From Pseudomonas phage Pa_WF01, in sequence record OQ848593.1: a DNA stretch of 64,000 bases. The stretch is one strand, 5' to 3'. The stretch's first letter is position 1. The number at the start of each line of letters is the position of its first letter. Positions 18,306 to 23,603 of the stretch are shown here, piece after piece. Under the pieces are notes generated by a model. The model did no database searches. It saw only the letters and a program-made list of their open reading frames with translations, and was not told the DNA's origin. The translations under genes and the position numbers were made by a program.

Positions 18306-18327
18306 CGCTTGTTTTCACAGAAGGTCG

Positions 18328-18996
18328 TTAATCTTCTGCCGTGTCAGCAGGACGTGGGAGATTTCCAAATATCCAACCTTTCAAAGGTTTCGTCGGTGCA
18401 GGTTTGTGCTGATTGCACTCCCGCATGCGATTGGCTATTTGATGTTCCTTAAGTCCCAAAGTAGGTGCTACATCTTTCTTGGTTTGATCGTGGATTTCTA
18501 CGTAAACCCCTTCTGGGGTCACGTAGTACCAAGGCTGGAATGCTGTATTTGAGGTACCAGCATGGCCCTTGTCTTTGCACTTAGTTCCACGAATCTTTTC
18601 AGCCGTCGCTGCATGAGCAACAATCATCGCTGGGGTGCGATTACCACTATAGCGACGGCTGAAAGTTTTACCTGCTTCAGTACGATCCACACTGATGCCT
18701 TTGTTCCAGCTGACGGAACCATGGCAGTCATGCGTTGCAACACGCTGGTTGTACCAGTTGGGTGACGCAACACAGTTGTGTTCTTCGATGTAACTCCGTT
18801 CGAAGTCCATCAACTCTTGGCGAGTATTGAAGGTTCTCAAGATGGTTTTCACAGGCGGGTTGTCTTTTCGGTCCACCGGTAAGCCCCTACCAGATCCGAG
18901 ATACGTGGTATCTAATTCTGGCGGTAGCTTGCACGAGCGGGCACCTATGTAGTACATCCCGTCTGCGAAAGTAAGCAAGTAAGCGTAGTGGTTCAT
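18328..18996 (-). CDS. GIY-YIG homing endonuclease
   Basis: YAYLLTFADGMYYIGARS..YLGSG with a downstream R/E/N set. ATG preceded by AGGAGGTCAC. Located in a low-GC stretch. Confidence 0.7.
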   Translation of the reverse strand: MNHYAYLLTFADGMYYIGARSCKLPPELDTTYLGSGRGLPVDRKDNPPVKTILRTFNTRQELMDFERSYIEEHNCVASPNWYNQRVATHDCHGSVSWNKGISVDRTEAGKTFSRRYSGNRTPAMIVAHAATAEKIRGTKCKDKGHAGTSNTAFQPWYYVTPEGVYVEIHDQTKKDVAPTLGLKEHQIANRMRECNQHKPAPTKPLKGWIFGNLPRPADTAED

Positions 18997-19302
18997 GTGA
19001 CCTCCTAGTTGTTCTGGAGTGCATATGTTACCACGCCCTACTGACACTGCTGTGAATTTCTCCACAGGCAAGACTATATCTTCACCCCAGAAGGGTGCTT
19101 CCCATTTCCACCCACTTGGGTGTACGGCCTAAGCCTAGTCGTTGAACCTTCTCCCATACGGAGCTTGGCTGCTGATTGCCCAATCCACACACTTTTCAAA
19201 CCTTCGCTTTGCCTTTCGGCTCGCAGTGGTAGCGTGGCTCTAAGGGGTTCCCAGCAATTAAGGAAGTGATCGACATGGATTGCTCCATGAAGGGGCTAGA
19301 AA

Positions 19303-19545
19303 TCAACCCGAGCAGCAGGCATCCAGCCCTACGAGGTGGCCAACAGGCTCACCACGCTGAGCAGCACGGATGGCCATGACAGCCTTGAGGTACTGCGGTC
19401 GAGTCTTCTCGTTGCACTCCAGATTCTCCAGGTTGTCGAAGTTGTCGTAGCACCATTGGATGCGCTGTTCGAAGAGCCATTTGTCATGGCCCATTTGGTT
19501 TGCAGCGTCGATCAGAAGGTATTCGAAAGCGGTGTAAGGGGTCAT
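19303..19545 (-). CDS. hypothetical protein
   Basis: 80-aa ORF on the low-GC island. Confidence 0.4.
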   Translation of the reverse strand: MTPYTAFEYLLIDAANQMGHDKWLFEQRIQWCYDNFDNLENLECNEKTRPQYLKAVMAIRAAQRGEPVGHLVGLDACCSG

Positions 19546-19579: not shown

Positions 19580-19864
19580 CTAGAGGCCGTATACGGTCAA
19601 CAGTGCTTGAAGTTCTTTAGGTATATCTTGGGTATACACCACAGGTGTAAGGTTCCCGGAATTGTCATCAGGTCCAAAGTAGAACCAGTAAGTAGTACTT
19701 CCATACTGCACAGACAGTCTGAGTAACACTAATTCACGCTTCAATTCTCCTTTCAGGTTGGCTTGATAGTGTGCTTGGTCTGACACTAGCCTGCTGTTTT
19801 CATCCGCGAACAGCTGCCACTCACCTTCCACGGTCCAAGCTGCTATGTTCAATGGTTTGCTCAT
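19580..19864 (-). CDS. hypothetical protein
   Basis: 94-aa ORF on the low-GC island. Confidence 0.4.
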   Translation of the reverse strand: MSKPLNIAAWTVEGEWQLFADENSRLVSDQAHYQANLKGELKRELVLLRLSVQYGSTTYWFYFGPDDNSGNLTPVVYTQDIPKELQALLTVYGL

Positions 19865-20138
19865 CGAGATCTATACCCCATATAACAGCCATGCCTATTA
19901 ATACAGCCGGCGGTTTGGTTAGCCTACTCCAGTCACTGATGTAAGTACCACCGCCTTTTACTTTGGTGGCCCACTTATACCTGAAAGAGCCTTTGTCACT
20001 GATGTAGCGGACTACCTTATTACCCTTTTCTATGTGCTGTATGGTTGCTTTCTCCCATGCTTGTTCTTTGTATCTTGAATCTGAGTACTCTTCGTAGTTC
20101 CAGCAATCACCGTCATGAATGAACAGGTACACAGCCAT
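19821..20138 (-). CDS. hypothetical protein, shares a C-terminal IIWG(I/L)D motif with the next gene
   Basis: 105-aa ORF. Shared C-terminal motif suggests paralogy with 20144..20419. Confidence 0.4.
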   Translation of the reverse strand: MAVYLFIHDGDCWNYEEYSDSRYKEQAWEKATIQHIEKGNKVVRYISDKGSFRYKWATKVKGGGTYISDWSRLTKPPAVLIGMAVIWGIDLDEQTIEHSSLDRGR

Positions 20139-20143
20139 CGGTT

Positions 20144-20419
20144 TTACCTCAGTAGTCTATCGAGTCCCCAGATTATTATCATTGCCTTGAGTTCTTCTGG
20201 TAGTTCATGGAAGCTTTCAAGCTTGTTCCTTTCAGTCATCGTAACCTTGTACCAGCTATTAGAAGCCAAGTAATTGAAGGTTATACAGTTATATCTTCGA
20301 TCTTCTTTGGTTGGATCAATGAAATCCCCAACCAGATCCAATATCGAACTGTGAACCGTGTAGGCCCAAATACCGTCCTTCTCCTGAAACGAATAGTGTG
20401 ACATTAATAACTCCTTCAT
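20144..20419 (-). CDS. hypothetical protein, paralog-like of 19821..20138
   Basis: 91-aa ORF whose C-terminus reads AMIIIWGLD. Confidence 0.4.
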   Translation of the reverse strand: MKELLMSHYSFQEKDGIWAYTVHSSILDLVGDFIDPTKEDRRYNCITFNYLASNSWYKVTMTERNKLESFHELPEELKAMIIIWGLDRLLR

Positions 20420-21359: not shown

Positions 21360-21710
21360 TTAATCGAACAGAAGTGATTGGGCGATGATCTCTCGTGGCA
21401 CTAGCTTCTCTGAAATAGGTGAGAAGAGTCCGTTGTAGCCGTGCCACTGGCCTTTGTACTTGACGTAGACCTGGGTGAACGGATCAATGTAGCTCCTGAT
21501 ACGGGTATGTATGATCCCAGTAGCCACATTGATCATCTCTTTACGGGTCACCTTCTCTGTCAGACCATCAAAGATGTACAGGAAGGTCTCTCCCTTCTGT
21601 AGGGACAATTGCACCGACATGGTTCTGTAGTTGTCCGCTAGTTTTTGCTCCATCTTCTGCATGTCGATGGTGACTTTCTGCGATCCTCGTAGACCCTTCT
21701 CTACTCTCAT
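21360..21710 (-). CDS. hypothetical protein
   Basis: Start MRVEKG, preceded by GAAGGAGTTCTACGC. Confidence 0.4.
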   Translation of the reverse strand: MRVEKGLRGSQKVTIDMQKMEQKLADNYRTMSVQLSLQKGETFLYIFDGLTEKVTRKEMINVATGIIHTRIRSYIDPFTQVYVKYKGQWHGYNGLFSPISEKLVPREIIAQSLLFD

Positions 21711-21742: not shown

Positions 21743-22183
21743 TTAGGGACGGCTCCAGATGGTTACGTTGTCCGGCAGACGGGCAAGGATGTCCTTGATC
21801 AGCCACCAGGGTTCACCTTGTCCAGGCTGCTCCAGATGGTACTGACGGGTTGGGTTCTCCTGTGCACGCCACATCAGCTGGGTGGTGCTGGTGCTGACAC
21901 ACCCCAGGTCAGTCGGATCACGGTAGTGACGCCTGTCCTGGAACACACCTACCTTGGATTGGCAGCGGCACCCGAAGATGCCACCAGCCCCTCCATTCTC
22001 AGCGATGTACTGCCCCACGCTGGTCTGAATACCAGCATCGGGGAAGCGGGCTACCAGTTCAGCAGCCATACCAGCAGTCATGACTACTGCCCCGGTGGAG
22101 GTGATGGTGCTGTTGCTCAGCACGATGAAGTGATCAGCCTTGTCGAAGGCTTCCCACATGTTCCCTACTACGAACTGTGGCAT
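21743..22183 (-). CDS. macro-domain-like protein (putative ADP-ribose binding/processing)
   Basis: GNMWEAFDKADHFIVLSNSTITSTGAVVMTAGMAAEL parallels the macro block GDIT..DAIVNAAN..L..GGGV..AI..AG. Divergent; not searched against a database. Confidence 0.4.
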   Translation of the reverse strand: MPQFVVGNMWEAFDKADHFIVLSNSTITSTGAVVMTAGMAAELVARFPDAGIQTSVGQYIAENGGAGGIFGCRCQSKVGVFQDRRHYRDPTDLGCVSTSTTQLMWRAQENPTRQYHLEQPGQGEPWWLIKDILARLPDNVTIWSRP

Positions 22184-22434
22184 TACAGGAGATCCCCCAT
22201 GCGGATGATTCCATCACAGCAGTCAGGGGACTGCTTGGTCAGGACGATGTGGTTGTTGACGTGGCTGTACTGGAACATCCAGCGGTGACCCTCATCTTGG
22301 TCGAGTACGGTCAGCTGCTTGAGCAGATGCTTCAGCTGCACTTCACGCAGTGCGTCGATGAGAGTATCCCCGTCGGCAACGAACAGTCCGTTCTCATCAC
22401 GGATCACTACACGCTTCAGATAGGTACGAGTCAT
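22183..22434 (-). CDS. hypothetical protein
   Basis: Start overlaps the upstream stop. 83 aa. Confidence 0.4.
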   Translation of the reverse strand: MTRTYLKRVVIRDENGLFVADGDTLIDALREVQLKHLLKQLTVLDQDEGHRWMFQYSHVNNHIVLTKQSPDCCDGIIRMGDLL

Positions 22435-22835
22435 TACATAGTCCCCCAGTACTTGGTGGTTGGTTTGAGCCAGGAAGTCCAAGCAGTGTCGAAGTAGCAG
22501 TTGTCGGGTGCATCCCTGAACAGCGGAGCTATCTCGCTGTCCTTGAAGCCAGCAAGCCCACAGCCAATGCGTGTCACCTGGAAGCGCATGTAGAAGTGCT
22601 CCCTGGCGAAGTCCATGAACCGTTGTGCGGCCTGGGCTACGTCACTGATGGGGCAGGTGACCAACAGCCCCTTCTGTCCACGGTGCTTGGTGGGCAGGGC
22701 ATAAGCCATACCAGTCGGCCCCTCACCCACGCCAAGCTCAGCACCCTTGTTTAAGCGAGCGTACTTGGCTGCACCTGCCCCATGGATGCCAGCGGTGTTA
22801 CTGCCAAACACGAAGATCATTTGGTTGGTGTCCAT
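22434..22835 (-). CDS. SLOG/DprA-LOG-like Rossmann-fold nucleotide-binding protein (putative)
   Basis: N-terminal IFVFGSNTAGIHGAGAAKYA resembles the beta-strand/Gly-loop/helix signature of DprA/LOG/SLOG families. Confidence 0.35.
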   Translation of the reverse strand: MDTNQMIFVFGSNTAGIHGAGAAKYARLNKGAELGVGEGPTGMAYALPTKHRGQKGLLVTCPISDVAQAAQRFMDFAREHFYMRFQVTRIGCGLAGFKDSEIAPLFRDAPDNCYFDTAWTSWLKPTTKYWGTM

Positions 22836-23128
22836 CAGTTGAAGCCTCCGAACTTGTTACGTGGGCCTTTGCCCAGGTGGTTGGTTTCATGGTTTCGCAG
22901 CGGCATCTCCCACTTGGGACAACGCTTGGACTTCTTCACCGGCTTGGGCAGTTGGTCCATAATGTGGGCCATCACCCGTTCTTCCAGCACGGTCATGTCT
23001 ATGTACACCGTGTCTATCCTTCTGCCGGAATACTTGCGTACTTCCAGGTGCTTGGTCAGGTACTCACGGTCCATGACCAGACGACCAGTTGGAGTACCCC
23101 CACAGGGTGTTTTAGGGTCAGTTGGCAT
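22835..23128 (-). CDS. hypothetical protein with basic Cys-containing C-terminus
   Basis: GGAGAAACTAT precedes the ATG. Confidence 0.4.
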   Translation of the reverse strand: MPTDPKTPCGGTPTGRLVMDREYLTKHLEVRKYSGRRIDTVYIDMTVLEERVMAHIMDQLPKPVKKSKRCPKWEMPLRNHETNHLGKGPRNKFGGFN

Positions 23129-23258: not shown

Positions 23259-23304
23259 AAAAAAGCAGCCCACACCCTACTCAGGATCGAGTGAGGGTGT
23301 GGGC
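23259..23304 (-). terminator. intrinsic terminator: 11-bp stem GCCCACACCCT/AGGGTGTGGGC plus T6 on the - strand
   Basis: Lies directly after the stop of 23313..23603. Confidence 0.6.
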
Positions 23305-23312
23305 GGACGCTC

Positions 23313-23603
23313 TTACAGGTCCAGCTGAAGCTCGGACTTGTCACGCACGACGCGGAAGGACAGGATCAGGCGCGAGCGCAGGTTCTCGATGCGCTTGACC
23401 AGATCCTTGTCGTCCTTGGCTTCGGCCAGGTACTCGTGCAGCTGTGCTTCGACGGCTTCGCTCAGGCGCAGCGGAATGCCATTGCCCAGGCGAACCGGAT
23501 CACCGCCACGGGTGCCGATGGAGATGTTGATGAAGCTGGCAGCACGGGTGTCGTCGGACTGAGCAGCGGTGTTGGTACGAGCGTTGGATTTCTTGAGTGC
23601 CAT
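23313..23603 (-). CDS. hypothetical early protein in an isolated transcription unit
   Basis: 96-aa ORF bracketed by a hairpin upstream and a strong terminator downstream. Confidence 0.45.
   Translation of the reverse strand: MALKKSNARTNTAAQSDDTRAASFINISIGTRGGDPVRLGNGIPLRLSEAVEAQLHEYLAEAKDDKDLVKRIENLRSRLILSFRVVRDKSELQLDL

Follow-up and report, generated by a model that had tools for sequence, protein, structure and literature searches.

Putative DarG/TARG1-class macrodomain proteins in an early-region gene cassette of a Pseudomonas Litunavirus

Orphan phage macrodomains are already established as anti-DarTG2 factors. PhiKZ gp104 (AdfM) strips from DNA the ADP-ribose that DarT2 attaches and relieves DarT2 toxicity, and the phage needs it on Pseudomonas aeruginosa carrying DarTG2 (Morgan et al., Cell Rep 2026, PMC13309987). 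T4 Tk.4, also an AdfM, is conditionally essential on DarTG2 hosts, and its knockout sensitizes T4 (HIDEN-SEQ preprint, 10.1101/2025.11.20.689424). In clinical P. aeruginosa isolates, DarTG2 restricts phages that have no macrodomain antidote (PMC13309987). The catalytic requirements of the class have been mapped in Taq DarG, in which K80A abolishes activity and N22A and G119E severely reduce de-ADP-ribosylation (Jankevicius et al. 2016, PMC5179494); N23 of PhiKZ AdfM is the counterpart of Taq N22, the Asn that ends the strand before loop 1. In T4 Tk.4 (L011, 6923-7390), Gln was observed in place of the catalytic Lys of DarG and TARG1 (LYTQ versus FPTK), with the Asn, GxG, and loop 2 kept; its sequence suggests either a different mechanism or a lysine that is dispensable for its substrate.

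N4-like phages rely on single-stranded promoter hairpins and ssDNA-binding cofactors. Among these cofactors, Drc of LUZ7 is an ssDNA-binding RNA polymerase cofactor and by far the highest-expressed early gene of that phage, and RNAP1 and RNAP2 are early products in both LUZ7 and N4. A search for literature linking Litunavirus, Schitoviridae, or N4 with macrodomains or DarTG found nothing. Here, we describe two macrodomain genes, ORF A and ORF B, in a member of Litunavirus, a genus whose phages are widely used candidates for Pseudomonas phage therapy.

Gene order and distribution of the cassette

The window, a 64,000-nucleotide stretch of Pseudomonas phage Pa_WF01 (OQ848593.1), derives from a Litunavirus (Schitoviridae, an N4-like P. 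aeruginosa phage) with ~95% identity to Pseudomonas phage Pa2. Over the 3.6-kb stretch spanning both genes, identity was 95% to Pa2 and 90 to 95% to ~70 other Litunavirus genomes. The early region of the window lies on the minus strand, and both ORFs proposed there by an initial annotation proved to be real genes on that strand, at exactly the coordinates given and with both quoted peptides present: homologs of ORF A were found in 93 phage records and those of ORF B in 418, and relative to Pa2 the synonymous codon changes exceeded the non-synonymous ones for ORF A (16 versus 7) as well as for ORF B (21 versus 13). They are the only macro-like ORFs in the window, and a single ORF separates them, as had been described (Table 1).

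Table 1. Genes and RNA features around ORF A and ORF B, in 5'->3' gene order
Feature	Position in window	Strand	Remarks
Drc homolog	23603-23313	-	First in gene order; phrog_6271; PDB 6qlc, E 7.8e-8
RNA hairpin and U-run	23261-23314	-	Immediately 3' of Drc homolog; -34.8 kcal/mol, z -7.3
97-aa ORF	22835-23128	-	PHROG 8775, no function given there; first gene of cassette; stop overlaps ORF B start (TGATG)
ORF B, 133 aa	22434-22835	-	Predicted compact macrodomain; PHROG 2072; NCBIfam A1S_2505_Nterm; N4 gp14 ortholog
83-aa ORF	22183-22434	-	PHROG 7756, no function given there; TAATG overlaps at both ends
ORF A, 146 aa	21743-22183	-	DarG/AdfM-class macrodomain; PHROG 335, labelled "phosphatase"
116-aa ORF	21360-21710	-	PHROG 8585, no function given there; begins 32 nt past the end of ORF A, ahead of RNAP1
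RNAP1	21348-20416	-	Last in listed gene order, after 116-aa ORF

Four genes, from 23128 to 21743, are linked by one-base stop/start overlaps (TGATG, TAATG, and TAATG) and therefore constitute one translationally coupled cassette, in which ORF B is transcribed before ORF A. The hairpin with its U-run probably acts as a terminator or attenuator and sets off the cassette on its upstream side; a simple terminator scan overlooked it because its loop is long. The cassette sits between the Drc homolog and RNAP1/RNAP2, whose counterparts in relatives are early products, which makes early expression likely in the present phage too; the earlier placement of the two genes in an early region fits this synteny. 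None of the three small co-operonic proteins had a match in Pfam, NCBIfam, PADLOC, or PDB sequences. The Drc homolog is called a "toxin" in PHROGs and RefSeq (phrog_6271), a misleading label.

ORF A and ORF B need not occur together. The LUZ7 genome includes ORF A and, directly upstream of it, the homolog of the 83-aa gene (gp018-gp019), but its first 50 kb yielded no ORF B; Littlefix has both types, ~4 kb apart; and N4 has the ORF B type only. A conserved module of the 83-aa gene plus ORF A holds in LUZ7 but fails in Littlefix and phCDa, and was given little weight. Domain fusions in longer family members were likewise set aside, as they carried no Pfam information and one of them, P0160, is an unrelated fn3-repeat protein. 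Two records named "Photobacterium phage TEMp-D1/D2" (PP852687.1 and PP852688.1) contain an ORF A ~96% identical to the P. aeruginosa Litunavirus protein, and the TEMp-D2 record also has ORF B at ~80% identity; a Photobacterium host label is odd for the genus.

Two further observations concern the window at large. Position 1 of the Pa2 genome corresponds to ~27232 of the window, which runs on past that point; either the window is a circular permutation with respect to Pa2 or it extends across genome ends or a terminal repeat. Between RNAP2 and RNAP1, positions 18306-19306 and 19625-20410 gave no megablast alignment to Pa2 except for a 320-bp island, with flanks ~93 to 94% identical to Pa2; this interval looks like a mosaic, variable run of small ORFs.

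Fold and active-site motifs of ORF A and ORF B

ORF A carries the peptide FIVLSNSTITSTGAVVMTAGMAAEL at residues 19-43, in which a divergent macro-domain signature had initially been read. The protein had no significant match in Pfam, NCBIfam, or PADLOC. In PHROGs, it matched phrog_335 (E 6.5e-24), which also matched T4 Tk.4 (E 1.3e-65) and PhiKZ gp104 (E 8.2e-43). The "phosphatase" label of that family goes back to T4 Tk.4, for which an ADP-ribose-1''-phosphatase (A1pp) motif had been noted. An AF2 model (pLDDT 82.9, lowest near loop 2, where residues 121-130 averaged 54) matched M. tuberculosis DarG (structural match score 13.9), T. africanus DarTG (13.8), TARG1 (12.6), and Poa1p (12.2). A word-index search with ORF A returned just 2-9 relatives, while an exhaustive HMMER search returned 733; the family profile, built from 128 sequences, matched M. 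tuberculosis DarG (E 2.4e-12), Taq DarG (E 1.2e-10), and TARG1 (E 3.8e-5). Because the model matches macrodomains and the family profile finds DarG by sequence alone, ORF A is a macrodomain of the DarG/TARG1 class, in line with the "macro-like" label it had been given.

The ORF A family splits in two, and motifs were counted separately in 106 canonical relatives and in the 22 members of the subclade of ORF A, a "short-loop" branch that includes the LUZ7, Littlefix, and phCDa homologs. Nearly all canonical relatives have the Asn of the TTN motif (100/106), the first Gly of loop 1 (VMGxGxA, 104/106), the Lys of FQxK (105/106), and loop 2 (PGIGxGxL, at least 100/106). Corresponding counts in the subclade were 3/22 for the Asn, 0/22 for the Gly, and 3/22 for the Lys (Arg in 11), and its loop 2 is 3-5 residues shorter, with the glycines lost. 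The subclade has conserved residues of its own: Glu118 (95%, Asn in canonical relatives), Lys77 (100%), Gly65, Gly68, and Pro125. In the window, the motifs of ORF A read LSN, VMTAG, FQDR, and PGQGEP. Asn24 is kept, although its subclade has mostly lost it; VMTAG stands in place of VMGxG, so that loop 1 (VMTAGMA) is without its first Gly; R84 in FQDR occupies the position of the catalytic Lys of the [FL]-[PI]-T-K motif (FQxK/FPTK); and loop 2 is cut to PGQGEP, a deletion of 3 to ~5 columns. Given the effects of K80A, N22A, and G119E in Taq DarG, ORF A would be unable to use the textbook DarG/TARG1 mechanism unchanged. Loss of the Lys alone is not proof of inactivity, because T4 Tk.4 also lacks it and is nevertheless protective. 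ORF A may be a hydrolase with altered specificity or a non-catalytic ADP-ribose binder.

ORF B carries IFVFGSNTAGIHGAGAAKYA at residues 7-26, a stretch to which a DprA/LOG/SLOG-type Rossmann signature had been ascribed. By alignment, this supposed signature would instead be the macrodomain Asn plus loop 1: S-N-T-A-G-I-H-G-A-G-A-A aligns gap-free with V-N-C-V-G-V-M-G-K-G-I-A of DarG. ORF B matched NCBIfam NF049995 (A1S_2505_Nterm) with 134.7 bits (E 1.4e-39) against a curated cutoff of 45 bits, and its own PHROG family is phrog_2072, with a weak match to phrog_335 (E 7.5e-4). Structural comparison again ranked DarG at the top (10.3), followed by Alphavirus nsP3 macrodomains (9.7-9.9), T. africanus DarTG (8.7), Poa1p (8.5), and TARG1 (8.2). 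The top 40 included few non-macro entries (aminopeptidases, aminotransferase-type enzymes, and a designed hydrolase), and the top 60 contained no LOG, SLOG, or DprA structure, in agreement with Foldseek. Of the macrodomain and SLOG pair initially proposed, the first member was upheld by comparison of structure models, while the second was replaced by another macrodomain.

In contrast to ORF A, ORF B retains a full set of motifs. Invariant in 56 relatives, and likewise in N4 gp14, are Asn13, Gly19, Gly21, Thr49, Lys50, and G91-C-G-L; N13, GAG, PTK (K50 in LPTK), and GCGLAG (G91-C-G-L-A-G) form a set that N4 gp14 has too. Loop 1 (IHGAGAA) and loop 2 (GCGLAGF) correspond to the diphosphate-binding patterns (M/H)-G-x-G-x-A and G-x-G-x-G-G-L. 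When the family profile was aligned with TARG1 (E 5e-3), Thr49-Lys50 fell on TARG1 Thr83-Lys84, of which Lys84 is catalytic, and GCGL coincided with the GCGLD loop of TARG1. An alignment gap shows that the stretch from helix 1 to the Lys strand is missing, which makes ORF B a compact macrodomain. Because all residues known to matter for DarG/TARG1 catalysis are kept, ORF B is most likely an active ADP-ribosyl hydrolase. These statements on the pockets of both proteins rest on sequence alignment.

Both proteins are thus modelled with a macrodomain fold, a three-layer alpha/beta/alpha arrangement around a mixed beta-sheet, and this fold is visible only through profile-profile and structure comparison. 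Neither reached the gathering threshold of Pfam Macro (PF01661) or related Pfam models, and at E<=0.01 these models matched one of the 128 relatives of ORF A and none of the 56 of ORF B. The signals linking ORF A to DarG (E 2.4e-12) and ORF B to NF049995 (E 1.4e-39) are far above chance. Pairwise BLASTP of ORF A against ORF B gave nothing; comparison of their family profiles by hhalign gave a probability of 97.3% (E 2.4e-11) and paired FQxK with PTK, PGIGxGxL with IGCGLAGF, and LPDNV with APxNC. Judged by these profiles, the two are ancient, distant paralogs. Their folds, motif states, homology, gene order, and distribution are directly established here.

A proposed role in counter-defence and its alternatives

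The account towards which we lean, if only slightly, is that ORF A and ORF B are orphan DarG/TARG1-class macrodomains, distant paralogs in one early coupled cassette, that would strip or neutralize ADP-ribose placed by host defence, with DarT2 acting on ssDNA as the prime candidate. ORF B would be made early and would hydrolyze ADP-ribose adducts by means of the Asn/Lys pocket common to DarG and TARG1; ORF A would do likewise with altered chemistry or specificity, or would bind only. Their target would be an ADP-ribosylating defence of the host, above all the thymidine ADP-ribosylation of ssDNA by DarT2; in favour of DarT2 are the two phage precedents, the common host species, and the DarG-first structural ranking. 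DarT2 exists in P. aeruginosa isolates. We infer the enzymatic activity, the substrate, the early timing, and the counter-defence role of both proteins; an anti-ADP-ribosylation role is plausible and has strong precedents. By our own reasoning, an ssDNA-specific modifier might be especially harmful to N4-like phages, which might explain why gp14-type genes are widespread beside RNAP genes.

Depletion of TNTC, the DarT2 motif, was considered as evidence and rejected as not specific: 1550 occurrences were observed against 2098 +/- 41 expected, but TNTC was the 8th lowest of 64 XNYZ patterns, and the depletion carries no weight because general coding periodicity depletes all XNX-type patterns. 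Across the whole window, all XNX-type gapped tetranucleotides (TNTG, CNCA, GNGC, ANAC, ANAG, TNTC, and others) were 25 to 40% under first-order Markov expectation, and GNAG, GNTG, and CNTC were 30 to 40% over it. This composition is a strong signature of coding periodicity that can mimic motif avoidance.

Alternatives differ mainly in the substrate of ORF B and the activity of ORF A. A rather unlikely one (ALTERNATIVES) holds that ORF B, and possibly ORF A too, is an ADP-ribosyl hydrolase for a substrate other than DarT2-modified DNA, which could be ADP-ribosylated protein or RNA from other host toxins or defences, or else ADP-ribose-1''-phosphate or O-acetyl-ADP-ribose (compare Poa1p, MacroD, and TARG1). 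The fold scores of ORF B do not discriminate in this respect, yet the sole phage macrodomains with experimental data, PhiKZ gp104 and T4 Tk.4, counter DarTG2, DarG is the top structural match of both proteins, and loop 2 of ORF B (GCGLAG) is like that of T. africanus DarG (GCGLGG) and has no equivalent of TARG1 Asp125. A somewhat better, though still doubtful, case can be made that ORF A is a pseudo-enzyme that sponges ADP-ribose or an ADP-ribose-derived immune signal, or binds a host protein, and leaves catalysis to ORF B. The losses of Asn, Gly, Lys, and loop 2 in its subclade point that way, as do the conserved residues that the subclade has gained, the purifying selection on the gene, and the low model confidence around loop 2. 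However, T4 Tk.4 protects against DarTG2 with Gln in place of the Lys, Asn24 is still present in this phage's protein, and with so short a loop 2 ORF A might have no ADP-ribose binding left at all, which would argue against a sponge. A more elaborate version, which we consider improbable, would make ORF A a neo-functionalized "short-loop" AdfM/DarG branch, acting against an ADP-ribose-based defence as a non-hydrolytic sponge or inhibitor, or through different chemistry, with the near-universal N4 gp14-type macrodomain protecting the ssDNA intermediates needed for N4-like transcription (hairpin promoters and Drc- or SSB-coated ssDNA) from ssDNA-specific ADP-ribosylation. The ORF A branch would then have lost the canonical catalytic residues and acquired conserved ones of its own, Glu118 and Lys77.

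It is very unlikely that the macrodomains instead regulate, or give immunity to, an ADP-ribosyltransferase of the phage itself. An arrangement of this kind may occur elsewhere: locus L007 (6001-11703), on a 303-kb contig of GCA_030012885.1, contains an ORF B-family gene (58% identical) and, 30 nt downstream of it in the same orientation, a gene for a 1757-aa polyvalent protein in which Nuc_deoxyri_tr2 and ART-PolyVal domains are combined. The protein after that matches PARP faintly, and in this jumbo-phage-like element the macrodomain and the ART may function as a pair. However, no ADP-ribosyltransferase is annotated in positions 1-59,999 of the Pa2 record, where many genes are hypothetical, and the conserved neighbours in N4-like phages are RNAP1/RNAP2 and not an ART. 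Least of all do we credit the original reading, in which ORF B, beside a macrodomain, is a Rossmann protein of SLOG/LOG/DprA type and acts on nucleotide signals by cleaving or sequestering them; it draws only on the glycine-rich N-terminal motif, superficially like SLOG/LOG loops, and was rejected at the fold level by the structure and profile evidence.

If either ORF A or ORF B is an anti-DarT factor, this would help to predict host range and would also provide a function for N4 gp14, an uncharacterized gene in more than 400 sequenced phage genomes. Of moderate interest are this suggested function for the large N4 gp14 family and the degenerate active site seen in the AdfM-like branch of ORF A, which serves as a natural experiment on the macrodomain residues that counter-defence truly needs.

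Comparison with DarG, AdfM, TARG1, and N4 gp14

DarG, the antitoxin of DarTG2 (PDB 5M31, 5M3E, 5M3I, and 7OMU), was the best structural match of both proteins. ORF B keeps the equivalents of Taq N22, T79-K80, and G117/G119 but not those of K29 and W83; ORF A lacks K80 and an intact 117-121 loop. The GCGLAG of ORF B resembles loop 2 of T. africanus DarG in particular. Both proteins, at 146 and 133 aa, consist of a single domain and are without the C-terminal DarT-binding domain of DarG; no DarT gene was found among their neighbours, and the PADLOC defence models gave no hits there. They are orphan macrodomains, AdfM-like in lacking a darT partner.

AdfM proteins are likewise single-domain, DarG-like phage macrodomains without a DarT-binding domain. 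ORF A shares PHROG 335 with T4 Tk.4 and PhiKZ gp104; the latter, from a phage with the same host species, reaches 47 bits with the profile of the canonical ORF A relatives. Identity between ORF A and gp104 is only 17%, however, and in the ORF A subclade the first Gly of loop 1 and the Lys have disappeared along with some of loop 2. ORF B differs further, in belonging to PHROG 2072 and in being ~30 residues shorter, and the present system has no phage nucleus. Data from PhiKZ AdfM deletion were rejected as a means of judging ORF B, as the jumbo phages with ORF B-type genes are PA5oct-like and not PhiKZ-like. The eukaryotic TARG1/OARD1 and yeast Poa1p (ALC1-like class) act on protein-Glu-ADPr, OAADPr, or ADPr-1''-phosphate, and the position of TARG1 Asp125 is Ala or Gly in the ORF B family.

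On this basis, existing database labels can be corrected: "phosphatase" and "hypothetical," and the "ADP-ribosyltransferase" of some records. In GenBank, a few depositors have already used "macro domain-containing protein" or "ADP-ribosylglycohydrolase" for ORF B orthologs. Others, in Zuri (MK863032.2), RcPeripeteia (OP009284.1), and RcBigEagle (OP009267.1), are called "ssDNA thymidine ADP-ribosyltransferase family protein" or "ADP-ribosyltransferase"; such names seem to be mistakes that give the eraser the name of the writer, probably caused by matches to the fused T. africanus DarTG structure in its macrodomain portion.

N4 gp14 is the closest counterpart of ORF B. Encoded in the early region of N4, directly upstream of RNAP1, it is preceded there by gp12 (DUF4326; L002, 3605-3973) and gp13 (Cys-rich, 61 aa), neither of which has a detectable homolog in the window; the Litunavirus cassette has the unrelated 97-aa and 83-aa genes. 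The two proteins themselves are 47% identical, and ORF B is a clear member of the group of N4 gp14, NF049995 ("A1S_2505 family phage non-structural protein"), and PHROG 2072, with no difference in kind.
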